From Deltaproteobacteria bacterium (lineage in GTDB: Bacteria > Desulfobacterota > GWC2-55-46), in assembly GCA_016219015.1 (NCBI GenBank), contig JACRCL010000032.1, forward strand, positions 26,588 through 90,587: a stretch of DNA of 64,000 nt. The letters are read 5' to 3'. Both the position numbers and the translations under genes were made by a program. This document shows positions 676 to 58,374 of this stretch, piece after piece; within the stretch, counting starts at the first letter, position 1, and every line of letters starts with the position of its first letter. The notes under the pieces are model-generated. The model was not told the origin of the DNA. It ran no database searches and saw only the letters and a list, made by a program, of their open reading frames with translations.

Positions 676-849
676 GGTTCCCTAAGAGGGTTGCGGAAAA
701 AGTCCTCAAAGTTGTCATTCTGATGGGCCGAGCGGCGAAGATAACGCGGCAGGTGGGCTTTTTCAGCAGCCTTTAATAAATAATGTATTATCTCTTTGAT
801 TTTGCTATAATATCAACTACATTCCTGAGGCGGTGCGGGGTTACTGGTC

Positions 850-3453: not shown

Positions 3454-4872
3454 ATGGCATTTTCCATCCGCACAAGGCTGACCTTCTGGTACGTGACTCT
3501 CCTCACGGTGAGCCTCCTTGCCTTCGGGGCGGCCTTCTCTTATTCGCTTGCCAAGACCTTCATGGACCATACCGACAGCCAGATAAGCTCGGTTGCGAAC
3601 ATGATGGTCCATACCGTCATAAAGCCTTCGGGGCAGCTTTTCCTGCCAAGGGACTTCGACATAATCCTCGAGAGGTTCTTCGGCATAAGGACCGCCGGCA
3701 ACTACATCCAGGTCCTCGACCCGCACGGCCAGATAGTGGCCAAGTCCTCGAACCTCGAGACCTTCAGCATGCCGCTCGTGGGCGCGACATACCACGCCGC
3801 CATCGGCGGGGCCACGACCTTCGAGATAGTCCGTAACGTCGGCAGGTACCCGGTGAGGGTCGTCACCAAGCCGATAATACTGAAGGAAAAAGGGCTTGTG
3901 GCCATTGTGCAGGTCGGCAGCTCGCTGGAGGGGATGGACGAGATATTCCATTCGCTGGCGTACATCTTCATCCTCGCGATAATCGCATCGGTCCTCATAT
4001 CCGGCTTCATCGGGTGGGCCCTGGCGCGCAAGGCCTTGAAGCCCGTGGCCGAGATAACGAAGACCGCGCGCAGGATCGGGGCCGAGAGCCTCAACGAGAG
4101 GATAAACATAACGGTCCCGCAGGACGAGATAGGGATGTTAGCCTCCACGATAAACGAGATGATGGAGAGGCTCGAGAAGTCGTTCAAGCAGATAAGACAG
4201 TTCACGGCCGACGCCTCGCACGAGCTTAAGACCCCGCTGACAATACTAAAGGGCGAGATGGAGATAGCGCTGCGGTCAAAGGACAACGTGGAGTACATGA
4301 AAGAGGCCTTGAATAGCAGCCTCGAAGAGATAGACAGGATGAACGACATAGTGAGGAACCTGCTTGACCTCGCGAAGATGGACGTTGAGAAGGGTGCGGT
4401 GCCGAAAGAGCCGGTGGACCTTGAGAAGGTCTTGAGCGACAGGTACGAGCAGTTGAAGAAGGTCGCCCTTGACAGCGGGATACACATGGCTATCCTCAGA
4501 AGTAAGCCCCTTATCGTAAGCGGCGACGCCGTAAGGATAGGCCAGCTCCTCTCCAACCTCATCGACAACGCCATCAAGTACACGCATAGGGGAGGGGCCG
4601 TCGAGCTTTCGCTTGACAGCGACGGGGGCTCGGCCGTGTTCATGGTGAGGGACACGGGGGTGGGCATCTCGAAGGAGGACCTGCCCTATATATTCGACAG
4701 GTTCTACAGGGTGGACAAGGCCCGTTCGCGCGAGGTCGGCGGCGCGGGCCTCGGGCTTTCGATATGCAAGGAGATAGCCGAATCTCACGGCGGCTCGCTC
4801 GAAGTGGACAGCGCCCACGGGCAAGGCTCGACGTTTACGGCGCGCCTCCCGCTCGCGGCGCAGACCGCCTGA
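3454..4872 (+). CDS. Two-component sensor histidine kinase (periplasmic loop, HAMP, HisKA, HATPase_c)
   Basis: Two hydrophobic transmembrane segments. H-box ADASHELKTPLT, N-box LLSNLIDNAIKYT, and G-boxes RDTGVGIS / GGAGLGLSICKEIAESHGG are all present. Confidence 0.9.
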   Translation: MAFSIRTRLTFWYVTLLTVSLLAFGAAFSYSLAKTFMDHTDSQISSVANMMVHTVIKPSGQLFLPRDFDIILERFFGIRTAGNYIQVLDPHGQIVAKSSNLETFSMPLVGATYHAAIGGATTFEIVRNVGRYPVRVVTKPIILKEKGLVAIVQVGSSLEGMDEIFHSLAYIFILAIIASVLISGFIGWALARKALKPVAEITKTARRIGAESLNERINITVPQDEIGMLASTINEMMERLEKSFKQIRQFTADASHELKTPLTILKGEMEIALRSKDNVEYMKEALNSSLEEIDRMNDIVRNLLDLAKMDVEKGAVPKEPVDLEKVLSDRYEQLKKVALDSGIHMAILRSKPLIVSGDAVRIGQLLSNLIDNAIKYTHRGGAVELSLDSDGGSAVFMVRDTGVGISKEDLPYIFDRFYRVDKARSREVGGAGLGLSICKEIAESHGGSLEVDSAHGQGSTFTARLPLAAQTA

Positions 4873-4915
4873 ACGGTTCGGCATCTAAACAATGTACTGA
4901 AAATCAAAATTCGAA

Positions 4916-5030
4916 AGGCTGCTCAAAAAGCTCCGGATGCGAGGCGTCAAGGAGCGAGGAATGAGGCGTGCTCTCCTTGCGTTATGACAAGACGAAGACA
5001 ACAAAGCAGACGGGCTTTTTCAGCAGCCTG
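4916..5030. repeat. Family-A MITE/REP-like element (copy A5, subfamily 2), inverted relative to A4
   Basis: Ends are aggctgctcaaaaag and ctttttcagcagcctg. The interior is the reverse complement of the interior of the copy at 16860-16975. Confidence 0.7.
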
Positions 5031-5054
5031 TACCACAAAAAGGAGGGCTTATAA

Positions 5055-6089
5055 ATGAACATAGGGATACTTACAGGCGGCGGCGACTGCCCGGGGCTTA
5101 ACGCCGTGATAAGGGCGGTGGTCAAGCGCGGGCTCCAGTTCGGATATGAATTTACCGGCATAAGGGACGGCTGGAGGGGCCTCATACAGCCAAAGCCGTC
5201 CACCATGAAGCTCACCCGCCAGGCGGTATCGGGCCTGCTGCCTCTCGGGGGGACCATACTCGGCACGTCGAGGACAAACCCCTTCAAGGACCCGAAAGAC
5301 ACGGAAACGCTCCTCAGGAACATAAAAGACCTCAAGCTCGACGCAATCATCTGCATAGGCGGGGACGATACTTTGTCCGTTGCCGAGAAGCTCTTCGCCA
5401 GGGGGATAAAGACCATAGGCGTGCCGAAGACCATAGACAACGACCTTTCGGGCACGGACTTCACCTTCGGGTTCGACACAGCCGTAAGCATAGTCACGTG
5501 GGCGCTCGACAGGCTCCACTCCACGACCGAGGCGCACCAGAGGGTCATGGTAGTCGAGGTAATGGGCAGGCACGCCGGCTGGATAGCGGTCTACGGCGGG
5601 ATAGCCGGCGGGGCCGACGTGATACTGATACCCGAGAAGCCCTTTGACGTTGAAGAGGTCTGCGGGTACATAAAAAAGAGGAAAGAGGCGGGCAAGAACT
5701 TCAGCCTCGTCGTTGCCGCCGAGGGCGCGTACCCCAAGGAGGCGGGCGGCATGATAACGAAGGACAAGGAGCTCGACGCCTTCGGCCACGCGAAGCTCGG
5801 GGGCGTCGGGGAGTTCCTCGCAAGCGAGATAGAAAAAAGGCTCGGGCTCGAGTCCCGCTTCGTTGTCCTCGGCCATTTGCAGAGGGGCGGCACGCCCACG
5901 GCCTACGACAGGGTACTCGCCACGCGATTCGGCGTGAGGGCCATAGAGATGGTCAACGAGGGCAAGTTCGGCAGGATGGTCGCGCTCCAGGGCAATAAGA
6001 TAGTCGATATATCGCTCCAGGAGGCCACAGCCAAGCTCAAGACCGTGGATATGGAGATGTACCGGACGGCCCAGATATTCTTCGGCTAA
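5055..6089 (+). CDS. pfkA: ATP-dependent 6-phosphofructokinase
   Basis: N-terminus MNIGILTGGGDCPGLNAVIRAVV, plus the ICIGGDDT and MGRHAGW motifs. RBS aaaggaggg sits 5 nt upstream of the ATG. Confidence 0.93.
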   Translation: MNIGILTGGGDCPGLNAVIRAVVKRGLQFGYEFTGIRDGWRGLIQPKPSTMKLTRQAVSGLLPLGGTILGTSRTNPFKDPKDTETLLRNIKDLKLDAIICIGGDDTLSVAEKLFARGIKTIGVPKTIDNDLSGTDFTFGFDTAVSIVTWALDRLHSTTEAHQRVMVVEVMGRHAGWIAVYGGIAGGADVILIPEKPFDVEEVCGYIKKRKEAGKNFSLVVAAEGAYPKEAGGMITKDKELDAFGHAKLGGVGEFLASEIEKRLGLESRFVVLGHLQRGGTPTAYDRVLATRFGVRAIEMVNEGKFGRMVALQGNKIVDISLQEATAKLKTVDMEMYRTAQIFFG

Positions 6090-6212
6090 CAGGCTGCTGA
6101 AAAAGCCCAATCTGCGGCGTCGTCTTCAAAATTCGTCACTGCGGCGTACAAAGTACGCCGCCTCATTCCTCATTTTTCGACTCCTTGCATCTTAGACTTT
6201 TTGAGCAGCCTG
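6090..6212. repeat. Family-A MITE/REP-like element (copy A1)
   Basis: 16-bp terminal inverted repeats caggctgctgaaaaag and ctttttgagcagcctg flank a conserved ~90-bp core (..gtcgtcttcaaaattcgtcactgcggcgtac...cattcctcatttttcgactccttgcatcttagac). It starts 1 nt after the pfkA stop. Confidence 0.8.
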
Positions 6213-6240
6213 ATGCGATTTGAGTCTTTTAGCGATACCT

Positions 6241-6708
6241 ATGCATATCTCAAGACTCTTTATATTACTACTTGCGCTCGCTGTTATTATTCCGGCCTGC
6301 GGGAAAAAGTCTACTGACGAGGAGCTTGTAAGAAAGGCCGTGGACAGGGCCGTAAGAAATGTCGAGGAAAAGGACGTAAGCGCCTTCATGAAGCTCGTCT
6401 CAAAAGACTACAGGGACAACGAGGGGAACGACTATAACGGGGTCAAGGGGATACTCGTCTACGAGCTTTTAAGGAAAGAAAGGGTGAGGGTCTTCGTAAG
6501 GAGCCTTGCCGTAGAGGTAAAGGGGGATGAGGCCCTTATCGACGCGAGGGTGGCGCTTGTAAGGGGCATGGACGCGGAAGGCGTTAAAGACATCATCCCG
6601 GAGAACGCCGAGGCCATGAGGTTCAACGTGGTATTCAGGAAAGAGGGAGGGGACTGGAAGGCCGTAAACGCAAGCTGGACGCACCTGGGCGCAACGGGCC
6701 TTTTATGA
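6241..6708 (+). CDS. Hypothetical lipoprotein
   Basis: Signal peptide with a lipobox-like motif (LLLALAVIIPACGKK). The ATG at 6241 is preferred over the track start at 6220. The mature part is charged and globular with no family-diagnostic motif. Its stop overlaps the next start (ATGA). Confidence 0.6.
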   Translation: MHISRLFILLLALAVIIPACGKKSTDEELVRKAVDRAVRNVEEKDVSAFMKLVSKDYRDNEGNDYNGVKGILVYELLRKERVRVFVRSLAVEVKGDEALIDARVALVRGMDAEGVKDIIPENAEAMRFNVVFRKEGGDWKAVNASWTHLGATGLL

Positions 6709-7280
6709 ACACGCATAGCGAGCGCAAAGCGAGCGAACAGAAATCGAAATCTTCCTTATGTGTCGAAGATCCCCCGCAGCTTGCTGCGGGGAGATTCAGC
6801 GAGGAGCCGGAAGGGAAAAGGTTCATAGCCGACGCCATGCTCGGCAAGCTCGCCAGATGGATGAGGACGCTCGGCTATGACGTCGAGTACGAAAAGTCAA
6901 TTGGCGACGAGGAGCTTGTAAAAAGGGCTTTGGACGAAGACAGGCTTATAATCACGAGGGATACACTGTTAATAAAGCGGCGGAAGGTCAGAGGCCGCTT
7001 TTTTTTCGTAAAGAGCGATGAGGCCGCCGGACAGTTAAAGGAAATAACCGGGCAATTCAAGCCCCCGGAGGGCCTCTTCCTTACGCGGTGCCTGAGGTGC
7101 AATACCGCGCTTATAGACGCGGACAAAAAAGATATGGAAGGCAAGGTCCCGCCGTATGTATTCAAGACACAGGAACACTTCTCGGTCTGTACGAGGTGCG
7201 GGCGCATATACTGGGGCGGCACGCACAGGGCGCGGATGGTCGAGGAGCTGGAGAGGATGCTTAAGGGCGAAGGCGGATAA
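6705..7280 (+). CDS. Mut7-C RNase-domain protein (PIN-like nuclease domain plus C-terminal zinc ribbon)
   Basis: The FIADAMLGKLARWMRTLGYDV motif is typical of the Mut7-C/PIN-like family. Two C-x2-C pairs are present (CLRCNTAL, CTRCGRIYWGG). Confidence 0.65.
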   Translation: MNTHSERKASEQKSKSSLCVEDPPQLAAGRFSEEPEGKRFIADAMLGKLARWMRTLGYDVEYEKSIGDEELVKRALDEDRLIITRDTLLIKRRKVRGRFFFVKSDEAAGQLKEITGQFKPPEGLFLTRCLRCNTALIDADKKDMEGKVPPYVFKTQEHFSVCTRCGRIYWGGTHRARMVEELERMLKGEGG

Positions 7281-7399
7281 AATTCATTATGGGATTATTT
7301 CGCGCCCTTGCAATGACGATATTCCCCCCCCGTTCTCCGTATTGCTTTATCCCCATAAAGATGTTAGCGTCATCTCGATCAGATACAGGGAGATAATCC

Positions 7400-7726
7400 A
7401 TGGGTGAGCGCTATATCCTTGTTTTTTCGACTGTCCCGAGCCCGGAGGAGGGCGCGCGGATAGGCAAGGCGGTCGTCGGGGAGGGGCTTGCGGCCTGCTG
7501 TAATATCATCCCCGGCCTCCGCTCCATATACCTCTGGAAAGGCAAGCTCTGCGACGAGGGCGAGGCGCTCTGCCTCCTAAAGACAAGGGCGCAGCTCTTC
7601 GACAGGCTCAAAGACAGGATAAAGGAGCTCCACACCTACGAGGTCCCCGAGATAGTAGCTATTGATATAAAGGACGGGCTCAGGGAGTACCTGAGCTGGA
7701 TTGGCACGGTCACGGAAGGGCCGTGA
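7400..7726 (+). CDS. cutA: Divalent-cation tolerance protein CutA
   Basis: 108 aa, full-length similarity to CutA1: VVFSTVPSPEEGARIGKAVVGEGLAACCNIIPGLRSIYLWKGKL...YEVPEIVAIDI. Confidence 0.85.
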   Translation: MGERYILVFSTVPSPEEGARIGKAVVGEGLAACCNIIPGLRSIYLWKGKLCDEGEALCLLKTRAQLFDRLKDRIKELHTYEVPEIVAIDIKDGLREYLSWIGTVTEGP

Positions 7727-7827
7727 GGCATGGCCTACCCCTCTCGCGCACAGGCGCACCTGTCTTTTTCCCGTTTTTTCAACTCACAGCAGGAAGATAA
7801 GGCCCGGCTTTGCGGCACCCTTTTCTT

Positions 7828-7856
7828 TTGACAAAGGATTAGCGATTCTTTACAAT
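7828..7856 (+). promoter_or_regulatory. Near-consensus sigma70 promoter: TTGACA, 17-nt spacer, TACAAT
   Basis: ttgaca at 7828-7833, 17-nt spacer aaggattagcgattctt, tacaat at 7851-7856. A family-A repeat (7879-8003) and then lepA (8059) lie downstream. Confidence 0.45.
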
Positions 7857-7878
7857 ATAATATTACGGTTTTTTTTAA

Positions 7879-8003
7879 CAGGCTGCTGAAAAAGCCCTGT
7901 TCTACCGCGTCGTCTTCAAAATTCGTCTTTGCGGCGTACAAGGCAAGTACGCCTCATTCCTCATTTTTCGACTCCTTGCATCTTAGACTTTTTGAGCAGC
8001 CTG
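7879..8003. repeat. Family-A MITE/REP-like element (copy A2)
   Basis: Same terminal inverted repeats and core as A1. It sits in the 5' leader of lepA. Confidence 0.8.
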
Positions 8004-8058
8004 TTTGTGATTTTGAGTTTTTTCAACCTGTTAAAAAAACGCTTTATACCGGAGGAAA

Positions 8059-9858
8059 GTGACGGACCAGAGCCTCATAAGGAATTTTTCGATAATCGCG
8101 CATATAGACCACGGAAAATCAACGCTTTCGGACAGGCTCCTCGAATACACGGGGACGATCTCGAAAAGGGAGATGGTAGACCAGTTCCTCGACAAGATGG
8201 AGCTTGAGAGGGAGCGCGGCATAACCATAAAGGCGCAGACGGCACGGCTTTCCTACAAGGCCGACGACGGGAAGACCTACACCTTGAACCTCATCGACAC
8301 GCCGGGCCACGTGGACTTCAGCTACGAGGTGAGCAGGTCGCTTTCCGCCTGCGAGGGGGCGATACTCATCGTGGACGCCTCACAGGGTGTCGAGGCCCAG
8401 ACCGTGGCGCACCTCTACACCGCCGTGGACGTAGGTCTTGAGATATTCCCGGTATTGAACAAGATAGACCTGCCGCAGGCCGACCCGGAGAGGATAAAAA
8501 AGGAGATAGAGGATGTCCTCGGGCTCGACGCCTCGGACGCGGTCCTTGCCAGCGCCAAGGAGGGCCTTGGCATAAAAGACGTCCTCGAGGCGATAGTAAA
8601 GAGGGTCCCTCCGCCGGCAGGCGACAACTCGAAGCCCCTTAAGGCCCTTGTCTTCGACAGCTGGTACGACACCTACCAGGGCGTTGTCGTCCAGATAAGG
8701 GTATTCGACGGGCGCGTAAGGAAGGGCACGAAGATAAAGTTCATGGCCACGGGAAAGACCTTCGACGTCGACAATGTCGGCGTCTTCTCACCCGGCCCCA
8801 AGGAGGTCGAGGAGCTCGGGGTGGGGGATGTCGGGTTCGTGATAGCGGGCATAAAGGAAGTAAGGGACACGAACGTCGGCGATACGATAACAGGCGCCGA
8901 GAACCCGACCGAAGCGCCGCTCCCCGGCTACAAGGCCGCCAAATCCATGGTCTTCAGCGGCCTCTATCCCGTCGATTCCGCCCAGTACGAGAACCTCAAG
9001 GAGGCCGTCATAAAGCTCCGGCTGAACGACTCGTCCTTCACCTTCGAGCCGGAGACTTCGCTCGCCCTCGGGTTCGGGTTCAGGTGCGGCTTCCTCGGGC
9101 TGTTCCACATGGAGATAATACAGGAGAGGCTCGAGAGGGAGTACGGCCTCGAGCTCATAACGACGGCCCCGACCGTCATATACAGGGTGACGAAGACGGA
9201 CAAGACCGTGGTGCTCGTCGATAACCCCACGAACCTCCCCCCGCCGCAGTACATAGAGATGATAGAGGAGCCTTACATACAGGCTACCCTCCATCTGCCC
9301 TCCGAGTACCTTGGCGCGGTCCTGGGCCTCTGCGAGAGCAAGAGGGGGATACAGAAAGAGATAAAGTACCTTTCCACGTCGAGGGTCATGGTCGTCTACG
9401 AGATACCGCTTAACGAGATAGTGCTGGACTTCTACGACAAGTTGAAGACCATGACAAAGGGCTACGCCTCCATGGACTACGAGTACCTGGACTTTAGGGA
9501 ATCCGACCTCATAAAGCTCGACATACTCATAAACGGCGAGGCCGTGGACGCCCTTTCCCTCATAGTCCCGAGGGAGCGCGCCTTCATGAGGGGCAAGGAC
9601 CTGGCCGAGAAGATGAAGGAGATAATACCGAGGCAGATGTTCGAGGTCATCATACAGGCCGCCATAGGGAGCAAGGTAATAGCGAGGGAGACGATAAAGG
9701 CGCTCCGCAAGAACGTCACCGCCAAATGCTACGGGGGCGACATCACGAGGAAGAGGAAGCTCCTCGAGAAGCAGAAGGAAGGCAAGAAGCGCATGAAGCA
9801 GGTCGGCAGGGTGGAACTCCCGCAGGAGGCCTTCCTGGCGGTATTGAAGGTAAGCTAA
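8059..9858 (+). CDS. lepA: Elongation factor 4 (LepA)
   Basis: GTG start after RBS ggaggaaa. GTP-binding motifs [25 protein letters not shown] and NKID are present. The LepA-specific C-terminus is ...[15 protein letters not shown]. Confidence 0.95.
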
Positions 9859-9883
9859 AAAAGGCAAAAAGGAGAAACAACAG

Positions 9884-10549
9884 TTGGGAACAGCCGAGAA
9901 GAAGGACAAGAAGAAACATTTCAGGGATATAGCCGAGGCCGTTATAATAGCCTTGATTTTAGCGCTCCTTATAAGGGCGTTCATAATACAGGCCTTCAAG
10001 ATACCCTCGGGCTCGATGGAGGACACGCTCCTCATAGGCGACCACATAATCGTAAGCAAGTTCGCCTACGGCCTGCAGGTCCCTCAGCCGGCCGTGATAA
10101 AGGTGCTCGGCGCGTCGGTCCCGTTCTTCGAGACCAGGCTCGTGACCTCGTGGGGGGAGGTAAAGAGGGGCGACGTGATAGTATTCCGTTTCCCCGGCGA
10201 CAGGTCCAAGGACTATATAAAGAGGGTCGTGGGCCTTCCGGGCGACAAGGTCGAGCTCAAGAACAAGGCCATCTATATTAATAACGAGAAGTGGGAGGAC
10301 CACTGGGGGGTCAACAAGGGCGGGCTCTTCGGTGAGGAGTCGGACAGGAACACTAACTTCGGCCCCTACACCGTGCCCGAAGGCTCCGTCTTCGCGATGG
10401 GCGACAACCGCGATAGAAGCTTCGATTCCCGCTACTGGGGGCCCGTGCCCATCAGGGACATAAAAGGGAAGGCGATAATCATCTACTGGTCGTGGAACAA
10501 GGACAATCACTGGGTCAGGTTTGATAGGATCGGCAAGATCATACATTAG
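9884..10549 (+). CDS. lepB: Signal peptidase I
   Basis: TTG start. Catalytic Ser region PSGSMEDTLLIGD, plus GDNRDRSFDSRYWGPVP (box E). Immediately downstream of lepA, the conserved arrangement. Confidence 0.9.
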   Translation: MGTAEKKDKKKHFRDIAEAVIIALILALLIRAFIIQAFKIPSGSMEDTLLIGDHIIVSKFAYGLQVPQPAVIKVLGASVPFFETRLVTSWGEVKRGDVIVFRFPGDRSKDYIKRVVGLPGDKVELKNKAIYINNEKWEDHWGVNKGGLFGEESDRNTNFGPYTVPEGSVFAMGDNRDRSFDSRYWGPVPIRDIKGKAIIIYWSWNKDNHWVRFDRIGKIIH

Positions 10550-10675
10550 CAGGCTGCTGAAAAAGCCCAATCTGCGGTGTCGTCTTCAAAATTCGTCACT
10601 GCGACGTACGGACAGAAGTACGTCTCATTCCTCATTTTTCGACTCCTTGCATCTTGGGACTTTTTGAGCAGCCTG
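10550..10675. repeat. Family-A MITE/REP-like element (copy A3)
   Basis: Begins 1 nt after the lepB stop. Same terminal inverted repeats and core as A1/A2. Confidence 0.8.
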
Positions 10676-10777
10676 CTGTTGAGTTTTTTAACGGCCTTTT
10701 AGATTTTTCAGCATAAATACAGGGAAAACACTTAAAAAACCATTGAAGGTTTCGCGTTTTGATGTTATAAGGCAAAA

Positions 10778-11701
10778 ATGCCCGGCCCTGTGCCCGACCC
10801 TGTGCCCAAACCTGTTGACGATTTCATCAGGTACCTTGAGGTAGAGAGGAACGCATCACTCAATACGAGGCTTTCCTACCTGAGGGACCTGAGGGAATTC
10901 GAGGCGTTCTTGAACGGCTCCGGCATCGCCTTTGACGTAAAGACGATAAAAGAGCCGGATATCACGGCCTTTGTCTACAGGCTCTTTAGAAGCAACAAGA
11001 AGGTATCGATAGCGAGGAAGCTCTCCTCGATAAGGTCTTTTTTCAGGTTCCTTTCAAGGAAGGGGCTCGTCGAGGCCAACCCGGCGGAGCTTGTGCCCAC
11101 GCCGAAGGTCGAGAAGTACCTCCCGCCGGTCCTTACGGCCGAGGAGGCCGTATCGCTCGTCGAGGGGCCGATAAAGACGGACTCACCCACGGCGCTGCGC
11201 GACCTTGCCATACTCGAGGTCCTTTACTCCTCGGGCATAAGGGTGAGCGAGCTTACGGGCGTCGCCCTTAAAGACGCAGACCTTGAAGCGGGCACGATAA
11301 AGGTGCTCGGCAAGGGCAACAAGGAGCGGATAGCGTACCTCGGCGACTACGCGAAGGACTCGTTGAAGAGATACATCGATAAAGAAAGAAGCGCAGCGGA
11401 GACAGACGCGCCCCTGTTCGCGGGCAAGGGCGGGGGCGGCAGGGTCTCCGTCCGGACGGTACAGAGGCTCGTAGGCAAGTACGTCGTGACGAGCGGGATA
11501 GACAAGACCCCGACCCCTCACGCCCTCAGACACTCGTTCGCCACGCACCTGCTCGACGCCGGTGTGGACCTGAGGTCGATCCAGGAGATGCTCGGGCACA
11601 GCAAGTTATCGACGACGCAGAGGTACACTCGGGTCAGCATGAAGTCGATGATGGAGGCCTACGACAAGGCCCACCCGAGGTCGAAGATGGGGAAGAAATG
11701 A
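10778..11701 (+). CDS. xerC: Tyrosine site-specific recombinase XerC/XerD
   Basis: Catalytic motifs are present: [36 protein letters not shown] (R-H-R-Y). The downstream hslVU pair matches the common xerC-hslVU arrangement, which supports calling it XerC rather than XerD. Confidence 0.8.
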
Positions 11702-11777
11702 ACTACCCTGCAGCTTGCTAAAGGGAGTGCTCAAGTTAAAAGAAATTTTTTTATGGAATGGGGCTACCAATAATTAT

Positions 11778-12311
11778 ATGACGACATTTCACGGAACGAC
11801 TGTGATAGCGATAAGGAGGGACGGCCGCGTCGCGATAGCTGGCGACGGGCAGGTTACCCTCGGCAATACCATCATGAAAAAAGGCGCGGTCAAGGTAAGG
11901 CGCATAAAGGACAAGGTCCTTGCGGGCTTCGCCGGCTCCACGGCCGACGCCATGACGCTCTTCGACAAGTTCGAGAGCAAGCTGGAGGAGTCGAGGGGCA
12001 ACATCACGAAGGCCGTGGTGGAGCTTGCAAAGGACTGGAGGACAGACAGGGTCTTACGTAGGCTTGAGGCCCTCTTGATAGTGGCCGACAAGGACCATAC
12101 CTTCATCGTCTCCGGCAGCGGCGACGTAATCGAACCCGAGGACGGCATAGCCTCCATCGGGAGCGGCGGGGCCTTCGCGTCAGCGGCGGCAAAGGTGCTG
12201 ATGCGCCACACAAGCCTCGACGCCAGGGCAATAGCCGAGGAATCGATAAAGACGGCCGCCGAGATATGCATATACACGAACAGCGAAATAACCATAGAGG
12301 AACTTTTCTGA
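11778..12311 (+). CDS. hslV: ATP-dependent protease subunit HslV
   Basis: The Thr-first motif (M)[15 protein letters not shown] follows the ATG at 11778. The track ORF adds 21 non-conserved residues from 11715. Confidence 0.9.
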
Positions 12312-12312
12312 G

Positions 12313-13671
12313 ATGAAGAGCTTTACACCAAGGGAGATAGTATCCGAGCTCGACAAGTACATAATCGGGCAGAAGAAGGCGAAGAGGGCGGTGGCGATAG
12401 CTTTGAGGAACCGCTGGAGGCGCCAGCAGGTCAGGGCCGACCTCCGGGACGAGATATCCCCGAAGAACATCATCATGATAGGGCCCACGGGCGTGGGCAA
12501 GACTGAGAGATCGAGGAGGCTCGCCAAGCTCGCTCAGGCGCCTTTCATCAAGGTCGAGGCGAGCAAGTTCACCGAGGTGGGCTATGTCGGAAGGGACGTG
12601 GAGTCGATCATAAGGGACCTGACCGAGTTGTCTGTAAAGATGGTAAAGGACGAGGAGAAGGTAAGCGTGCTCGTAAAGGCGAAGGACGCGGCCGAGGAGA
12701 GGGTCCTCGACTTCCTCCTCCCGCCCGTCACCGCCGCCCCGTTCCAGCCCGCTGACCAGGAGAGGATTATCAAAGAGCGGGAGCTTCAGAAGGCCACGCG
12801 GGACAAGTTAAGGACGCTGCTGCGTGAAGGCAAGCTCGACGACAGGACGGTGGAGATAGAGACGGCCGAGCAGCAGAAGATGCCCTCGATAGAGATACTA
12901 TCTTCGGCGGGGGTGGAAGAGATGGACATGAACCTGAAGGACATGTTCTCGAACATCTTCCCGAAGAAGACCCGGAAGAGGAAGGTGAAGGTCCCGGAGG
13001 CATACGAGCTTATAACGCAGGAAGAGGCGCAGAAGCTCATAGACATGGACAAGGTCGTAAAGGAGGCCGTGGAGCGCGTCGAGCAGTCCGGCATCGTCTT
13101 CATAGACGAGATAGACAAGATCGCCGGCAGGCAGGCCGGGACGACCCCGGACATATCGAGGGAGGGCGTCCAGAGGGACCTCCTGCCTATAGTCGAGGGC
13201 TCCACCGTGAACACCAAGTACGGGATGGTGAAGACCGACCATATACTCTTCATCGCCTCCGGCGCGTTCCATGTGGCCAAGCCGTCGGACCTGATACCGG
13301 AGTTCCAGGGCAGGTTCCCGATAAGGGTCGAGCTCGAGCCGCTCGGCGAGGAGGACTTCATACGGATACTCACCGAGCCGGAGAACGCGCTGTTGAAGCA
13401 GTACAAGGCCCTGCTTGAGACCGAGACGATAGAGATAACCTACACCGACGACGCCGTGCGGGAGATAGCGTCGATCGCAGCGCTCGTCAACGAGCGGATG
13501 GAGAATATCGGCGCGCGGAGGCTCCATACGGTCATGGAGAGGGTCTTTGACGAGATATCCTTCGAGGCCCCGGACATGCCCCGCAAGGCGCTCGTCATAG
13601 ACAGGGAATACGTGAGAAAGAGGCTCTCCGACATAGTAAAGGACGAGGACCTCTCTCGGTATATATTATAA
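12313..13671 (+). CDS. hslU: ATP-dependent protease ATPase subunit HslU
   Basis: N-terminus [37 protein letters not shown], Walker A GPTGVGKT and a ClpX-type AAA+ domain. The start is 1 nt after the hslV stop. Confidence 0.95.
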
Positions 13672-13741
13672 CAGAAAGCAATACGGTCCAGCCGTGGCGG
13701 GCCCTGGCCCAGCCGCGGTATTTAAATTTTATGGAGCCGCC

Positions 13742-14599
13742 GTGCAGAAGAACCTTGAAAAGATAAGGACCCTATTTGAATCCCTTCCCTACATAAGGAA
13801 GTTCTACAACAAGACCATCGTGATAAAATACGGCGGCCACGCCATGGTCGAGGAGGGGCTCAAGATGAGCTTCGCCAGGGACATGGTGCTCATGAAGTAC
13901 GTGGGCATAAACCCCGTCATTGTACACGGCGGCGGCCCGCAGATAGGCGGCCTGCTTGCCCGGCTCGGCAAGGAATCGAGGTTCGTAAAGGGGATAAGGG
14001 TCACTGACGACGAGACCATGGACGTCGTGGAGATGGTCCTCGTCGGCAAGATAAACAAGGAGATAGTCGGCCTCATAAACCACTTCGGCGGCAGGGCCGT
14101 GGGGCTCGGCGGCAAGGACGGCGGGCTCATAAAGGCCAAAAGCCTCAAGATAAAGGGCGAGGAGATGGGGTTCGCCGGGGACGTCGATTCCATCGACCCG
14201 TCGGTCATAAAGACCCTCGAGATGAATAACTTCATCCCCGTGATAGCGCCCGTCGGAGGCGGGGAGGGCGGCCACAGCTACAACATAAACGCCGATACCG
14301 TGGCCGGTAAGGTCGCAAGCGCCCTGAAGGCCGAGAAGCTGATACTCCTTACGGACGTGGCCGGGGTGCTCGACAAGAACAAGAAGCTCCTGTCGAGCCT
14401 GAGCCTTTCTGAGGCGCGCTCGCTAATAAACAAGAAGATAGCCGTTGGCGGGATGATACCGAAGCTCCAGTGCTGCATGGAGGCCGTGGCCTCCGGGGTA
14501 ACCACCGCGCACATAATAGACGGCAGGGTAGAGCACGCGGTCATGCTCGAGGTCTTCACGGACCAGGGCGTTGGCACGGCTATAGGGTTGAAGAAATAA
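13742..14599 (+). CDS. argB: Acetylglutamate kinase
   Basis: [22 protein letters not shown] and [10 protein letters not shown] are both present. I chose the GTG at 13742, which follows a GGAG RBS. The ORF-caller start at 13694 (also GTG) would add 16 aa. Confidence 0.88.
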
Positions 14600-14618
14600 T
14601 CTTTGGAAGGGGACTGAG

Positions 14619-15815
14619 TTGACTAACAGGGAAGTAATCGCGCTTACGGAAAAGCACGTAGCCAACACATACGGCAGGTTCCCGGTCGCAATCGTCAGGG
14701 GGCAGGGCAGGCGGGTCTGGGACGCGGATGGCAGGGCGTACCTTGATTTCACGTCGGGGCTTGCCGTCTGCAACCTCGGCCACTGCCACCCGAATGTCGT
14801 TGCCGCCATCAAGGCGCAGGCCGAAAAGCTCATCCATATCTCGAACCTCTACCATATCGAGACACAGTCCGAGCTGGCAAGGCTCCTTACCGAAAACTCC
14901 TTCGCGGACAAGGCGTTTTTCTGCAACTCAGGGGCCGAGGCGAACGAGGCCGCGATAAAGCTCGCCCGCAAGTATTTCAGCAATAAGGGAGAGGGCAGGT
15001 TCCAGGTAATAACGATGGAGAAGTCCTTCCACGGCAGGACCCTGGCCGCGCTCGCGGCAACGGGGCAGAAAAAATTTCAGGCCGGGTTTGAGCCTCTTTT
15101 GGAGAAGTTCACCTACGTGCCCTTCAACGACGTCCCGGCGCTCAAGGCCGCCGTGAACGGACAGACCGCGGCCGTAATGATAGAGCCCATACAGGGCGAG
15201 GGCGGGGTCAACGTCCCTTCGGACGAATACCTGAAGGGTGTAAAAGAGGTCTGCAAAAAGGCGGGCGCGCTCCTCATATACGACGAGGTGCAGGTCGGCA
15301 TGGGCAGGACTGGAACGCTCTTCGCCTACGAGAACTATAACGTCGCGCCCGACATAATGACTCTCGCCAAGGGGCTTGCCGGGGGCGTAGCCATAGGAGC
15401 GATGCTCGCCACCGACGAGGTAGCCGCGGCCTTTACCCCGGGCTCCCACGCCTCTACCTTCGGGGGCAACCCGCTGGCGACTGCCGCCGGCATAGCCGCG
15501 ATTAAAACCATGCTCGGCGAGAATGTCCTCGATAACTGCAGGAAGTCCGGCGGATACCTTTTCAGGAAGCTGGAAGAGCTAAAGAGTAAATATCATTTCA
15601 TAAAAGAAGTGCGCGGCAAGGGGCTAATAATCGGCATGGAGCTTGCCGAGGGGATAAAGGGCGGGGATATAGTGAAAGAGTGCCTCGGCAAGGGGCTTCT
15701 CATCAACTGCGTCGGAGATAAGACGCTCCGGTTCATCCCTGCGCTTACGGTAACAACGGAAGAGATAGACGAGATGCTCGGTACACTTGAAGGGGTGCTG
15801 GCGGGGGTTAAATAA
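14619..15815 (+). CDS. argD: Acetylornithine aminotransferase (class III PLP enzyme)
   Basis: TTG start. Motifs FCNSGAEANEAAIKLARKY and LIYDEVQVGMGRTGTLFAYE, with PLP-Lys context TLAKGLAGG. Confidence 0.9.
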   Translation: MTNREVIALTEKHVANTYGRFPVAIVRGQGRRVWDADGRAYLDFTSGLAVCNLGHCHPNVVAAIKAQAEKLIHISNLYHIETQSELARLLTENSFADKAFFCNSGAEANEAAIKLARKYFSNKGEGRFQVITMEKSFHGRTLAALAATGQKKFQAGFEPLLEKFTYVPFNDVPALKAAVNGQTAAVMIEPIQGEGGVNVPSDEYLKGVKEVCKKAGALLIYDEVQVGMGRTGTLFAYENYNVAPDIMTLAKGLAGGVAIGAMLATDEVAAAFTPGSHASTFGGNPLATAAGIAAIKTMLGENVLDNCRKSGGYLFRKLEELKSKYHFIKEVRGKGLIIGMELAEGIKGGDIVKECLGKGLLINCVGDKTLRFIPALTVTTEEIDEMLGTLEGVLAGVK

Positions 15816-15934
15816 TTTTTGTCGATACGGGTGGGTCGCAGGTTGATCTTTCACCCTCAATTCACCCTCCTCTCAATCCCCTCCCATCTTAGGGAGGGGA
15901 GGAATTAAAATCAAATCGAAACAGCGGAGCATAG

Positions 15935-16852
15935 ATGAACCTCCTTACGATAGCTGATCTAAACAAGGAAGAGATAGACGACCTCATCGGGCGGGCGGGG
16001 GCGTTGAAGGAAAGGCACAGGAAGGGCATACCGCATACGCCGCTCCGCGGGAAGACGCTCGGGATGATATTCGAGAAGTCCTCCACAAGGACGCGGGTGT
16101 CGTTCGAGGTGGCGATGCATCAGCTCGGGGGCAGCTCGATATTCATAAGCGGCAAGGACTCCCAGATAGGCAGGGGCGAGCCGATAAAGGACACCTCCCG
16201 CGTGATGTCGAGGTACGTTGACGCGATAGTCATAAGGACCTTCGGCCACGAGATAATAGAGGAGTACGCTCGGTACTCGTCCGTCCCGGTCATAAACGGC
16301 CTGACGGACGCGCACCACCCGTGCCAGGTGCTCGCGGACGTGCTTACCGTGGTCGAGAAAAAGGGCGGCTACGAGGGGCTCAAGTTCTGCTGGATAGGCG
16401 ACGGCAACAACATGGCGAACTCCTGGATAGAGGCCGCCATGAGGCTCGGTTTCGACCTTACACTTGCCTGCCCGAGGGGGTACGCCCCTGATAACGTCTT
16501 CCTGAAGAGGGCGAAGGCCGAGGGCGCGGCAAGGGTCCGTGTCACGGAAGACATCGCCGGGGCCGCGAAAGACGCCGACGTGCTCAATACCGACGTATGG
16601 GCCTCGATGGGGCAGGAGGAAGAAAGCGCCAAAAGGAGGCTGGCCTTCGCCGGTTACCAGATAAACTCGGAAGTCCTCAAGCTCGCCAAGAAGGACGCCG
16701 TTGTCCTCCACTGCCTCCCGGCCCACAGAGGGGAAGAGATAACCGACGAGGTGATCGAAGGGGCGAATTCAGCGGTGTGGGACGAGGCCGAGAACAGGCT
16801 CCACATACAGAAGGCGATACTCGAGTGGCTTTTGGTGGATGGCGGAAGGTAA
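15935..16852 (+). CDS. argF: Ornithine carbamoyltransferase
   Basis: Carbamoyl-phosphate-binding motif STRTRVSFE, ornithine-binding HCLPAHRGEE and a DVWASMG-like motif. Confidence 0.92.
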   Translation: MNLLTIADLNKEEIDDLIGRAGALKERHRKGIPHTPLRGKTLGMIFEKSSTRTRVSFEVAMHQLGGSSIFISGKDSQIGRGEPIKDTSRVMSRYVDAIVIRTFGHEIIEEYARYSSVPVINGLTDAHHPCQVLADVLTVVEKKGGYEGLKFCWIGDGNNMANSWIEAAMRLGFDLTLACPRGYAPDNVFLKRAKAEGAARVRVTEDIAGAAKDADVLNTDVWASMGQEEESAKRRLAFAGYQINSEVLKLAKKDAVVLHCLPAHRGEEITDEVIEGANSAVWDEAENRLHIQKAILEWLLVDGGR

Positions 16853-16859
16853 AATTTAG

Positions 16860-16975
16860 CAGGCTGCTCAAAAAGTCCATCTGCTTTGTTGTCTACGTCT
16901 TGTCATAACGCAAGGAGAGCACGCCTCATTCCTCGCTTCTCGACGCCTCGCATCTGGAGCTTTTTGAGCAGCCTG
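16860..16975. repeat. Family-A MITE/REP-like element (copy A4, subfamily 2)
   Basis: Perfect terminal inverted repeats caggctgctcaaaaag / ctttttgagcagcctg. The core is a diverged relative of A1 and the inverted counterpart of the copy at 4916-5030. Confidence 0.75.
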
Positions 16976-17079
16976 AGCAAGATTTGAGTTTTTAGCAACC
17001 ATTAAATTATAATATGTTACAGCAGTTATTTGATAAAAAATTTTAAGTATTGCATTAGACAATAAGGCATAAAGGAGAA

Positions 17080-18291
17080 GTGATGGGCAAGGAGATAAAG
17101 AGGGTAGTCCTGGCGTACTCGGGCGGGCTCGATACGTCGGTAATAATGAAGTGGCTCATCGAGAGGTACGGCTGCGAGGTCGTCGCCTTCTCAGCCGATA
17201 TCGGGCAGGGCTCCGAGCTGAAGGGGCTCAAGGAAAAGGCCGTCAATACCGGAGCGAAAAAAATATATATAAAAGACCTGAGGGCGGAGTTCGTCTCCGA
17301 CTTCGTCTTCCCGATGCTCAGGGCCGCCTCGGTCTACGAGGGGACTTACCTCCTCGGCACTTCCATCGCGAGGCCGCTCATAGCAAAGGCCCAGATGGAG
17401 ATAGCCAGGGCCGAGAGGGCCGACGCCGTGTCGCACGGGGCCACGGGCAAGGGCAACGACCAGGTCAGGTTCGAGCTTACCTACTATTCGATAAACCCTC
17501 ACATAAAGGTCATAGCGCCCTGGCGCGAATGGGACATGAAGGGCAGGGCCGACCTCATCCGCTACGCCAAAAAGCACGGCATCCCGGTGCCGGTCACGAA
17601 GTCGAAGCCCTACAGCTCCGACAGGAACCTCTTCCACATAAGCTTCGAGGGCGGCATACTCGAAGACCCGTGGGCCGAGCCGCCCGAGGACATGTACGTC
17701 CTTACGAAGTCCCCGGAGAAGGCCCCGAACAGGCCGTCCTACGTCGAGGTAGGCTTCGAGGCCGGTAACCCCGTCTCCGTGAACGGCAGAAGGATGGCCC
17801 CGGCAGCGCTCCTTTCAAGGTTGAACGAGCTTGGAGGGGAGAACGGCGTCGGCAGGGTCGATATGGTCGAGAGCCGCTACGTGGGCATGAAGTCGAGGGG
17901 CGTCTACGAGACCCCCGGAGGCACGATACTCCACGCGGCGCGCAGGGCAGTCGAGTCGATAACAATGGACAGGGAGCTTATTCACCTGCGGGACAGTTTG
18001 ACGCCGAGGTACTCGCAGCTCGTCTACTACGGGTACTGGTACTCCCCTGAGAGGAAGGCCCTCCAGGGACTGATAGACGAGGCCACCGGCAATGTCACTG
18101 GGGTGGCGCGCGTAAAGCTTTACAAGGGCAACGTGATAATAGCGGGCAGGAAGGCCCAGGCGTCGCTCTATCACCCGGACTTCGCGACCTTCGAGGAGGA
18201 TACGGTCTACGACCAGAAGGACGCCGAGGGGTTCATAAAGATAAATGCCCTGAGGCTCAAGATAAAGGCGATGGCCGACAGGAAGAAATAA
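17080..18291 (+). CDS. argG: Argininosuccinate synthase
   Basis: N-terminal motif [13 protein letters not shown], plus ADIGQG and the conserved ...[15 protein letters not shown]. Confidence 0.95.
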
Positions 18292-20420: not shown

Positions 20421-20554
20421 CTGATTAATTCGCAGCCGCATGTCATTCTGAGCGTGTGAGCCGAAGCCCTGAGCGAAGCGAAGGGGAAGAATCTCATGGT
20501 AAAAAAAATCAGCAGTTACGAGATTCTTCGGTCGCTCCGCTCCTTCAGAATGAC
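20421..20554. repeat. Family-B palindromic element (copy B2), inverted relative to B1
   Basis: ctgattaatt...gtcattctgag...ttcagaatgac. The interior is essentially the reverse complement of 541-653. It ends 20 nt before the folK ATG. Confidence 0.7.
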
Positions 20555-23456: not shown

Positions 23457-24347
23457 TTGAAAAAGGTCGGGCTTGTCGTAAAGGTCAGCAACCCCGAGGC
23501 CATAAAGCTGGCCGACGAGATAGCCGGATGGGTCACTGAAAGGGGAGGGGAGGTCTTCGCGGACAGGACGCTTGCGGGCATGGTCAGGCTCGGCCTTGCC
23601 GGGGTGCCCGTAAACATCGTAGCCCCGGAGAAGTTCCCGGACTCCATAGAGCTTTTGATAGTGCTCGGCGGCGACGGCACGATGCTCCACGCCGCGAGGC
23701 TCCTTGACGGCAGGAAGGTCCCGATACTCGGAGTAAACCTCGGGAGCCTCGGCTTCCTTACGGCCATCACCGTCAAAGAGGTCTTCCCGCTGCTCGAACG
23801 GATATTCAGGGGCGACTGCGTCGTGGAAGAGAGGATGACGCTCTCGGTGGAGCTTAAGAGGAAGGACGGGGGCGTGATGAAGCACACGGTCTTGAACGAC
23901 GCCGTCATAAAGGGCGAGGCCGCCCGGCTCGTGAGGCTGGAGACCCGCATCAACATGGAATACGTGAACACCTACAGGGCGGACGGCCTTATCGTTGCCA
24001 CCCCGACGGGCTCGACCGCGTATTCCCTCTCGGCCAACGGGCCGATACTCTACCCGACCATACACTCGATAATCGTTGCGCCCATCTGCCCGTTCAACCT
24101 GACCAACAGGCCCGTCGTCATACCCGACTGGATGACCGTGGACGTGACCGTGAGCCCGGACCAGGCGAACGTGGAGCTGATACTCGACGGGCAGGTCGAG
24201 GTGCCGCTTGAAAGCGGGGACATGGTAAGGATAAAGAGGGCGCAGGCGAGCGTATACCTGATCAAGTATGAAGGCAAGAGCTATTTTGATATACTCAGGG
24301 AAAGGCTCATGTGGGAGGTAAAGACCAACAGGAGCGGCAAGGCTTAG
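23457..24347 (+). CDS. nadK: NAD kinase
   Basis: GGDGTML motif, plus NDAVI and the conserved C-terminal region. TTG start. Confidence 0.88.
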   Translation: MKKVGLVVKVSNPEAIKLADEIAGWVTERGGEVFADRTLAGMVRLGLAGVPVNIVAPEKFPDSIELLIVLGGDGTMLHAARLLDGRKVPILGVNLGSLGFLTAITVKEVFPLLERIFRGDCVVEERMTLSVELKRKDGGVMKHTVLNDAVIKGEAARLVRLETRINMEYVNTYRADGLIVATPTGSTAYSLSANGPILYPTIHSIIVAPICPFNLTNRPVVIPDWMTVDVTVSPDQANVELILDGQVEVPLESGDMVRIKRAQASVYLIKYEGKSYFDILRERLMWEVKTNRSGKA

Positions 24348-24348
24348 C

Positions 24349-24366
24349 AGGCTGCTGAAAAAGTCC
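24349..24366. repeat. Solo left inverted repeat of a family-A element (truncated copy A6)
   Basis: agcaggctgctgaaaaag overlaps the nadK stop. No matching right end or core follows. Confidence 0.5.
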
Positions 24367-24401
24367 ATCGGCTAACAGCGGTTTTTTCTATTTTTTAAAC
24401 T

Positions 24402-28660: not shown

Positions 28661-28944
28661 CGTGACCCCCGTCACTGTTTGCGCCCGCCCTTGTATTATA
28701 GACTGCGGGTGTTTTGAGGCGACCCGCAGAGGGACGATATAAAACTTGACTTCATGGGCGCCTTTATGCTAAGTAAGCAATCCTGACCGGCCTGAAGACC
28801 GACAGGCGCTTAAAAACTCAAAGAAGGCAGTCCGCATCAAAGCCATTCACACCCGCGGCAATCGGCCGCTCCACGCTACACCGTTTCAGATTCAAGGAAA
28901 ATTTTTCAGGACCGGTAAGGAACCACCGCTTTTTTGATCTTAAG

Positions 28945-29015
28945 GGTGCCTCTAAAAAGCAGGAATTTTTTCTGAAGTCAGAGGTCAGGGAAAAGAACAA
29001 TTTTTACAGGCAGCC
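28945..29015. repeat. Family-C MITE-like element, short form (copy C1)
   Basis: ggtgcctctaaaaagcaggaattttttctgaagtcagaggtcagggaaaagaacaatttttacaggcagcc. It shares its ends and the core gaattttttctgaagtca...gaggtcagggaaaagaacaattttta with the copies at 56899 and 58375. Confidence 0.65.
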
Positions 29016-29928: not shown

Positions 29929-30005
29929 ATGCCGGGGGCGGAAAGCGCCCCCCGGTGACCGACGAAGCCCTGCGAAATGCCGATGCGGGGCTTTTTTTAT
30001 TTTAA

Positions 30006-30145
30006 CAGGCTGCTGAAAACCGTTTTAGTACGTCATTCTGAGCGTAGCGAAGAATCCCAGAGCTGATAGAAACAACAAGTAACGGGATTCTTCGTCGCCT
30101 CCGGCTCCTCAGAATGACAACTTCGTGGACTTTTTGAGCGGCCTG
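30006..30145. repeat. Composite repeat: family-A inverted-repeat ends enclosing a family-B-type core
   Basis: caggctgctgaaaac ... gtcattctgagcgtagcgaagaatccc ... gggattcttcgtcgcctccggctcctcagaatgac ... ctttttgagcggcctg. Confidence 0.7.
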
Positions 30146-56824: not shown

Positions 56825-56898
56825 AGATAATAAATATCGGTTCCCGGCCTTGACGCCTTTCCAACCGGTCCCCGGCCGCAATCCCAAGCAAAGAAAGG

Positions 56899-58373: not shown

Positions 58374-58374
58374 G

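Follow-up and report, generated by a model that had tools for sequence, protein, structure and literature searches.

The window analyzed here is a 64,000-nucleotide stretch of DNA from a Deltaproteobacteria bacterium (contig JACRCL010000032.1), in which a run of housekeeping genes is interspersed with copies of a short repeat that we call family A. The gene order is kept in relatives (radA, a GHL13 gene, crp, a histidine kinase gene, pfkA, two small genes, cutA, lepA, lepB, xerC, hslVU, argB, argD, and argF), and the PfkA proteins of these syntenic relatives are 88–90% identical. Pfam or homology confirms pfkA, lepB, argF, argG, nadK, cutA, and xerC, of which pfkA, lepB, argF, and nadK had already been named in an original prediction made from the letters of the window. 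Family A is very probably a non-coding MITE (miniature inverted-repeat transposable element) that inserts at YTAR with a 4-bp target duplication and is moved by a transposase encoded elsewhere. Its copies in the window, together with one neighboring promoter, are listed below; scores in bits are from cmsearch with the covariance model described further on, and L numbers, where used, denote loci from our genome scan for family A or from syntenic relatives.

4890–5030, minus strand: copy 1, with a degenerate outer end (4890–4905), an inner end (4915–4930), the hairpin, and the terminal end (5015–5030)
6090–6239, plus strand: copy 2, with the hairpin unit at 6090–6212 and a degenerate tail at 6213–6239 (81.1 bits)
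7875–8034 with its TTAA copies (7875–7878 and 8031–8034), plus strand: copy 3, the element proper at 7879–8030 (68.8 bits)
10546–10702 with its TTAG copies (10546–10549 and 10699–10702), plus strand: copy 4, the element proper at 10550–10698 (81.9 bits)
16860–17002, plus strand: copy 5, with TTAG before it at 16856–16859 (65.3 bits)
24348–24370, plus strand: truncated copy, the left end (24348–24363) and ~7 nt more, directly after the nadK stop codon, with TTAG at 24344–24347
687–773, minus strand: partial or rearranged copy, with its terminal end at 758–773 (21.5 bits, E 0.014)
30006–30145, plus strand: chimera, family-A ends around a family-B palindrome at 30032–30118 (18.6 bits)
7828–7856, plus strand: lepA promoter, outside the element, of sigma-70 type (TTGACA-17-TACAAT, 11/12 positions)

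Copy 1 sits between the histidine kinase gene (stop codon 4870–4872) and pfkA (start 5055), scores 60.6 bits on the plus strand, and is 94% complementary to 16860–16974. Copy 2 begins directly after the pfkA stop codon, with CTAA at 6086–6089; copy 3 occupies the lepA leader, with the promoter at 7828–7856, which is conserved in L116, L117, and L119, upstream of it; the TTAG preceding copy 4 includes the lepB stop TAG; and copy 5 lies between argF (stop codon 16850–16852) and argG (start 17080). The distance from stop codon to element is 0 nt for pfkA, lepB, and nadK and 7 nt for argF, in line with the earlier statement that all elements abut the stop codons of such genes, which fails for copy 3, in the lepA leader, and for copy 1, the outer end of which lies 17 nt past a TGA. 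The solo end, fragment, and composite that had been noted besides the full copies are present at 24348–24363, 758–773, and 30006–30145; the second of these belongs, together with family-B repeats, to a composite that follows a radA-like gene (513–776), and the third is flanked by TTAA at 30002–30005 and by TTTAA after its right end.

The 16-mer found at the ends of the elements (CAGGCTGCTSAAAAAG / CAGGCTGCTGAAAAAG) has 18 matches in the window at up to three mismatches, compared to 0.65 expected from 100 dinucleotide shuffles, the largest of which gave 3 and none of which reached 18. Inverted pairs of these ends bound five elements of 115–126 bp (4915/5030, 6090/6212, 7879/8003, 10550/10675, and 16860/16975), confirming the five full copies originally predicted there, which a covariance model from another phylum also recovers at 61–82 bits. 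The terminal inverted repeats are CAGG(C/T)TGCTGAAAAA, 16 nt on both sides. We refer to the strand that reads GGCTGCTGAAAAAG...CTTTTTGAGCAGCC as G-first and to its complement as C-first; on the G-first strand, YTAR stands directly 5' of CAGGCTG. The mobile unit is longer than the 115–126 bp first assigned to it, with a tail of 25–30 nt holding a third copy of the end: past the closing CTTTTTGAGCAGCCTG there are 8–14 variable bases, then this outer end copy, (GAG)TTTTTCAGCAACCTG, and then YTAR again. The full unit accordingly runs from YTAR through CAGGCTGCTGAAAAAG, an irregular hairpin of ~90 nt, CTTTTTGAGCAGCCTG, 8–14 nt, and TTTTTCAGCAACCTG to YTAR, with a length of ~125–155 bp including the tail. 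The outer end copy complements the left end perfectly, and the inner copy has a conserved C where pairing with the left end would need G. In a few copies (L058 and L110) the tail is absent, and YTAR stands directly 3' of the inner copy.

The window copies fall into two subfamilies, the second of which occurs in both orientations, as had been described; the membership is, however, {6090, 7879, 10550} and {4916 reversed, 16860}, and not the first three copies against the last two. The core consists of an A-tract, a long hairpin, and a T-tract, with a T5 run inside the stem that is paired with an A5 run, and the window hairpins have folding energies between −39 and −60 kcal/mol, with z from −3.4 to −8, as strong as was anticipated. 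Hairpin-unit lengths of 119, 120, 121, 122, and 123 nt are all common, so that no reading frame is kept and the unit is non-coding; a conserved coding frame, which we considered since both strands are open by composition, is ruled out by this length variation. Between family-A ends, the interior is at times swapped for unrelated sequence (window 30006–30145, L028, L061, and L088). We also observed longer variants of 170–215 bp (L065:6829–7028, L097:~200–316, L121:5832–6046, and L012:5530–5712), which are nested insertions of another small palindromic element in or near the apical loop, and, at L080:1348–1608, two near-identical tandem copies, 20 nt apart and in the same orientation.

In the 43 copies that have a recognizable tail, 8 pairs of flanking 4-mers are identical and not palindromic, 7 are identical and palindromic, and none is inverted, and one identical pair is of the non-canonical form CTGG..CTGG. 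Where both flanks fit YTAR, 15 of 17 pairs are identical (CTAA..CTAA and TTAG..TTAG, for example); in the window, 7879–8030 is flanked by TTAA and 10550–10698 by TTAG. These direct repeats on both flanks exclude both an extended palindrome and a TA duplication with longer ends. The latter, IS630-like arrangement predicts TTAG on the left and CTAn on the right, whereas 8 of 8 pairs are direct repeats.

Comparison with relatives provides four empty sites for the lineage of the window: upstream of pfkA, at the pfkA stop codon, in the cutA–lepA spacer (the lepA leader), and at the lepB stop codon. The site upstream of pfkA, occupied by copy 1 in the window, is empty in L116, L117, and L119, and in the same three loci, which are element-free, PfkA ends in IFFG and a stop at the codon used in the window. 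The lepA leader has the sequence T8AA[element]TTA7 in the window and T6CA7 in L116, a filled and empty pair that points to duplication of TTAA. In L121, which has no element at this site, the conserved promoter region of xerC comes at once after the lepB TGA. The site orthologous to 687–773 holds a different family-A insertion in L121 and none in L122, and in the relative JACRET01 family A is present elsewhere (L043, L063, and positions 1280 and 5832 of L121), so that these differences are insertion polymorphisms in a lineage in which family A is still active or was until recently. An empty site is seen in a second phylum as well: at the NC10 locus L015, an element lies exactly at the pdhA stop codon, between pdhA and pdhB, and in three NC10 relatives (L125–L127; PdhA 81–87% identical) this spacer is short, unrelated, and empty. 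The flanks of family-A copies are unrelated to one another. Family A is dispersed at unrelated loci with empty sites in relatives, as MITEs are, and the target-site duplications and insertion polymorphisms that had been suggested as checks were both found (the 15 of 17 YTAR pairs and JACRET01, respectively); together with the inverted ends and the unrelated flanks, they substantiate the non-autonomous, recently active transposition originally proposed.

A scan of 185,579 species-representative genomes with the pattern GGCTGCTSAAAAAG-N75-105-CTTTTTSAGCAGCC, for which we estimate a chance expectation of ~0.001 in 596 Gb, gave at least 115 loci from at least 71 assemblies, so copies do exist beyond the window, and on unrelated flanks. 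With host taxa taken from the submitters' labels and counted among the matches listed, there are at least 28 typical copies in Nitrospirota, at least 24 in NC10/Methylomirabilota and Rokubacteria, at least 10 in Binatia, and at least 35 in several Deltaproteobacteria/Thermodesulfobacteriota lineages including the window, as well as at least one each in Omnitrophota, Auribacterota, and a 'Sulfotelmatobacter' metagenome-assembled genome. Mis-binning cannot account for this spread, since many of the matches are on contigs of 0.2–5.6 Mb. Identity of the interiors has a median of 0.68–0.91 within a lineage and is at best 0.69–0.79 between clearly different phyla; judged by these interiors, the copies form lineage-specific subfamilies rather than the product of one recent sweep.

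Some labels are themselves questionable. 'Candidatus Sulfotelmatobacter sp. SMAG_U12160' (DASPOZ01) has many copies of the NC10 subfamily, with interiors up to 94% identical to NC10 copies (L009, L041, L059, L080, L081, L087, L091, and L107), and its PdhA relatives are NC10-like as well; with copies of this type, either the label or the binning of this genome is doubtful. In the same way, several 'Deltaproteobacteria' labels go with Binatia-type copies (98%). Rfam gave nothing at gathering thresholds over the whole window and nothing on the elements at E up to 10 (4800–17100), the paired-end pattern had no match in viral contigs, and two copies compared by blastn with 72,556 plasmids matched none of them. 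In the full-text literature, four end strings returned only unrelated primer matches, and nothing relevant was retrieved on MITE or repetitive extragenic palindrome (REP) elements in Nitrospira, Methylomirabilis, Rokubacteria, or Binatia, nor on IS701 and YTAR. Family A thus appears to be undescribed.

The covariance model was built from 30 NC10/Rokubacteria-type copies only. It nevertheless finds the five window copies at 61–82 bits (E 1e-15 to 5e-11) on the C-first strand, compared to 23–37 bits on the other strand, finds the partial copies at 687–773 and 30006–30145 weakly, and finds 92 copies outside its training set at 50–100 bits (in Deltaproteobacteria, Nitrospirota, and Binatia). Paired cells amount to 92.9%, compared to 77.9% in shuffled and 32–41% in slid controls; changes on both sides occur in 28 of 42 pairs (544 cells); and the covariation score is 0.356, compared to 0.124 (shuffled) and 0.03–0.05 (slid), figures that overstate the independent support, as the model itself shaped the alignment and the cells do not count as separate events. 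Helices 4–7 have wholly different sequences between phyla, with the pairing kept, and the ends, GC-AAGGC in the 5' arm, AACG in the 3' arm, and the apical GAGGCGUAC-loop-GUACG are near-invariant across phyla. From these alignments, the hairpin is to all appearances maintained by compensatory substitutions in every lineage.

This conservation is strand-asymmetric. The C-first strand folds better in 105 of the 115 listed copies, by a mean of 7.4 kcal/mol, and its non-Watson–Crick positions include 1102 purine–purine (G.A 792, G.G 177, A.A 133) and 68 pyrimidine–pyrimidine mismatches, a ratio of 16:1. The tandem G.A/A.G in CAGAUGC/GCAGAUG is replaced by Watson–Crick pairs in Nitrospirota copies. 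G-U wobble was tried as a further strand marker, and is clear in the apical stem, but does not mark the strand overall, as G.T (247) is about as frequent as A.C (214). The C-first strand is usually antisense to the neighboring gene (in about two-thirds of clear cases and in four of the five window copies). Candidate explanations for the asymmetry are that the C-first strand is the sense strand of a lost transposase gene, that a regulatory hairpin was inherited from the parent element, that selection keeps the mRNA-sense strand free of Shine–Dalgarno and AUG signals, or that transposition includes a single-strand step.

Gene ends are a frequent site of insertion. In 63 of the 115 listed copies, the left end is preceded by a TAR that forms a stop triplet, and 43 (37%) lie exactly on the stop codon of an open reading frame (ORF) of at least 80 codons. 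A stop-codon insertion leaves the gene intact because YTAR holds TAA or TAG and is duplicated. Twelve more long ORFs read into the element and end at a TGA inside GGCTGCTGA (L006, L009:5690, L012, L021, L044, L058, L081, L091, and others), so that both their stop codon and their final residues come from the element, and other ORFs end 2–12 nt upstream. In L072, L063, L091, L053, and L026, the element is located between convergent ORFs that each end in one CTAG copy, although some tail-side ORFs may be antisense artifacts here; this suggests that the target was a CTAG common to two overlapping stop codons. One such artifact is L015:39–1931 (plus strand), a 630-aa open frame antisense across pdhB into the element tail.

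Copies are also found inside operons, between pdhA and pdhB and between argF and argG. With the conserved promoter at 7828–7856 upstream and lepA–lepB downstream, transcription must pass through copy 3. There is no U-tract directly after the closed hairpin (the sequence there is TG + N), and a terminator scan of the window calls none of the family-A elements. Of the terminator role put forward in the original prediction, a strong form is thus unlikely given the copies in the lepA leader and in pdhAB, and any effect on host transcripts would be that of an element that is read through. We also note a promoter-like site at 16984–17013 (10/12), with its −35 TTGAGT in the tail of copy 5 and its −10 TATAAT in the flank, 67 nt before argG, which may be a hybrid promoter made by the insertion.

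The ends, the duplication, the empty sites, the distribution of copies, and the structural covariation are all shown here, and the mechanism that would best connect them is as follows. A DDE-type transposase encoded elsewhere would recognize the 16-nt ends and insert the element at a 4-bp YTAR target (CTAG, TTAG, CTAA, or TTAA), duplicating it as IS5 does. Insertion at a stop codon would leave an intact stop codon on the gene side, and insertion at a CTAG common to convergent genes would leave one for both; such insertions would be nearly harmless and would pile up at gene ends, inside operons, and in leaders. The inner end copy is paired with the opposite end, which makes the whole interior one long irregular hairpin. 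IS5 duplicates 5'-YTAR-3', 4 bp (PMC5009759), and as this duplication is the IS5 signature, we infer an IS5-type DDE transposase acting in trans. Among the parent families suggested earlier, the YTAR duplication thus favors IS5 and speaks against IS630/Tc1 and IS200/605. The statement that the cognate transposase is outside the window agrees with our searches: Pfam detects no transposase domain in 30 window ORFs, and tblastn with Escherichia coli IS5 InsH against the window and all fetched DNA gave nothing below E 0.2. Inverted end pairs 0.4–4 kb apart in the fetched loci are all neighboring MITEs, and solo ends there are tails or truncated copies.

A number of observations weigh against this reading. 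There is no autonomous element with family-A ends in the window, ~0.9 Mb of fetched loci, plasmids, or viral contigs; the assignment to IS5 was drawn from the duplication only, and the family-A ends are unlike those of E. coli IS5A (GGAAGGTGCGAACAAG, the sole IS5-family element compared) beyond the initial GG. A tail is recognizable in just 43 of the 115 listed copies, and many older copies are without a clean duplication. Stop-codon YTARs make up 10 of the 89 YTAR sites (~11%) outside coding sequence in the window, so that the 37% share of copies on stop codons is an approximately three-fold excess over permissible sites; this could come from selection, the stop codon being the point furthest from downstream promoters and ribosome-binding sites, or from a target preference. 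In 36 cases only the left side adjoins a gene end and in 17 only the tail side does, an orientation bias that the mechanism does not explain and that is approximate, since long tail-side ORFs include antisense artifacts (e.g., in L015). Finally, a double-stranded DDE substrate does not predict the 16:1 excess of purine–purine mismatches on one strand, and template-switch correction of quasi-palindromes could yield apparent compensation in the hairpin without selection.

One further reading is compatible with a MITE, namely that family A is the mobile carrier of a functional single-stranded structure, the purine-rich C-first strand hairpin being what is selected. The variants of this are a protein-binding RNA, an RNA with an antisense or regulatory role that descends from the parent insertion sequence (IS), or a single-stranded DNA intermediate needed for transposition. 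The better folding of the C-first strand in 105 of 115 copies, the model scores of 61–82 compared to 23–37 bits, the 16:1 mismatch ratio, the replacement of tandem G.A/A.G by Watson–Crick pairs in Nitrospirota, the strong covariation, and the near-invariance across phyla of AAGGC, AACG, and GAGGCGUAC...GUACG all agree with it. However, the C-first strand runs antisense to its neighboring gene in roughly two-thirds of clear cases and would need a promoter of its own, none being evident; G.T (247) does not exceed A.C (214) appreciably; there is no Rfam match; the interiors are replaceable by unrelated sequence between the same ends; and the presence of copies in both orientations, in leaders, in operons, and in convergent gaps fits selfish spread. 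We regard as rather unlikely both this reading and the corresponding proposal that the hairpin is a strand-specific structured module, transposon-borne and under selection in at least five phyla as RNA or single-stranded DNA. As RNA, such a module would be a regulatory or antisense hairpin from the parent, or a protein-binding 3'-untranslated-region or leader module on which hosts rely; as single-stranded DNA, it would serve an unconventional route of transposition that depends on it and yet produces the 4-bp duplication. In either case, family A would be the first bacterial MITE with an interior under phylum-wide structural selection.

The strand asymmetry would likewise suit the single-strand mechanism of REP doublets (REPINs) spread by a REP-associated tyrosine transposase (RAYT, a Y1 HUH enzyme), or of IS200/IS605-derived palindrome-associated elements moving as single-stranded hairpins, and a ~120-nt hairpin doublet in intergenic DNA with a conserved tetranucleotide flanking one side (YTAR, sometimes GTAG) resembles both. 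REP units are, however, 20–40-nt palindromes headed by a GTAG-like tetranucleotide and leave no target duplication, and IS200/IS605-derived elements have neither terminal inverted repeats nor a duplication, inserting 3' of a fixed tetranucleotide on one side; IS630/Tc1 elements, for their part, duplicate TA. Since family A has its 4-mer directly repeated on both sides in 15 of 17 pairs, a lepA filled and empty pair that fits duplication, and true 16-nt terminal inverted repeats of which neither end is itself palindromic, and since no RAYT gene was seen (though no genome-wide search for one was made), we consider this origin very improbable; of the "MITE/REP-like" designation first given to the elements, the MITE half stands on the duplication and inverted ends, and the REP half falls, as REPs leave no such duplication. 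Still less credible is that the elements are host-evolved gene-end signals that arose in place, as bidirectional intrinsic terminators or 3'-stabilizing hairpins. Their position directly after stop codons, their core of A-tract, long hairpin, and T-tract, and their very stable RNA folds would fit, but in close relatives the stop codon is unchanged and the site empty, the flanks are duplicated, copies lie between promoter and lepA–lepB and between pdhA and pdhB, no U-run follows the closed hairpin, no element is called by the terminator scan, and unrelated loci in several phyla share near-identical sequence. The least plausible of all, to which we attach almost no weight, are integron attC sites after gene cassettes: the length of ~120 nt, the imperfect hairpin, the strand-specific folding, and the position directly after ORFs are reminiscent of attC, but the neighbors are syntenically conserved housekeeping genes, the ends have the flank consensus YTAR-CAGG...CCTG and lack RYYYAAC/GTTRRRY core sites, and copies occur in both orientations with target duplications.

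Read as a MITE, family A is a new family of a known kind of element. It shares with IS5 and IS5-derived MITEs the 4-bp YTAR duplication and short inverted ends starting with GG, and, being non-coding, would be mobilized in trans; in contrast to IS5, the ends of which (GGAAGGTGCGAACAAG) are unrelated, it has two end copies on one side and a long conserved hairpin interior, and no IS5-family transposase with family-A ends was found in the loci searched. In the Correia elements (CREE/NEMIS) of Neisseria, the inverted ends give rise to long RNA hairpins, and the elements lie near genes and are co-transcribed, at high copy number and with many polymorphic insertions. Family A is likewise a hairpin-forming, inverted-end MITE inserted near genes, whereas Correia elements have TA as their duplicated target, occur in a single genus, and contain an integration host factor site and promoter elements, in place of the YTAR target and the several phyla of family A. 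In size, Correia elements are MITEs of ~100–200 bp, 204 bp as first described (PMC10969869). ERIC/IRU is a ~127-bp imperfect palindrome in transcribed intergenic DNA with a conserved secondary structure, and its host range of Enterobacteriaceae and Vibrionaceae is the widest cited for a bacterial MITE, described families being confined to a genus or family (PMC10969869); this is spread at the family level only, while family A, with another sequence and target, is found in six lineages across phyla. Chunjie, a MITE in Geobacter uraniireducens, is matched by the pdhAB, argFG, and lepA-leader insertions of family A, but is 178–235 bp long and known from one species. REPIN/RAYT systems are similar in their abundant intergenic hairpin doublets of ~100 nt and in that REPIN conservation depends on a single-copy enzyme encoded elsewhere, and differ in having two short REP palindromes and no target duplication where family A has 16-nt inverted ends and a YTAR duplication.

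Family A stands out by its multi-phylum spread and by its strand-asymmetric hairpin kept by compensatory change, and its three-end architecture is one of three features that set it apart. The spread implies a widely shared transposase in uncultivated soil and groundwater bacteria, and makes the family a marker of gene flow between phyla. Regeneration of the stop codon, including both CTAG stops of convergent genes, allows a selfish element to sit at zero distance from essential genes, and family A supplies the stop codons of about one-tenth of adjacent genes. A considerable part of the intergenic DNA in the window consists of its elements, which probably also break metagenome assemblies. They are also an annotation trap, because T-poor MITE strands and high G+C extend spurious ORFs, such as the 630-aa frame in L015.

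The window contains three further repeat families. MITE family C (28944–29015, 56897–57032, and 58374–58501) has ends, GGCTRCCYCTAAAAA, that resemble those of family A, and 4-bp direct repeats that read TTAA..TTAA twice and GAAA..GAAA once; it is probably mobilized by the same transposase as family A or a related one. The palindromic family B, with ends GTCATTCTGAG...CTCAGAATGAC, is present at 541–653 (with the repeat extending to 681), 20442–20554 (with the repeat starting from 20414), and 30032–30118, and as a fragment at 714; it is found alone, inside a larger CTCTGATTAAT...ATTAATCAGAG repeat, or nested in family-A ends (30006–30145). Repeat family D occurs at 2470–2614 in the window, at L027:6362–6505 and 50–73, and at L016:3700–3767, the window and L027 copies being ~83% identical. 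Its end consists of the short palindrome TTAG-CAGGCTGTTG-TAA-ACAGCCTG-CTAA beside GCAATCC...GGATTGC, and the palindrome at 2470–2499, previously taken for fused family-A ends, is the end of this family-D repeat.

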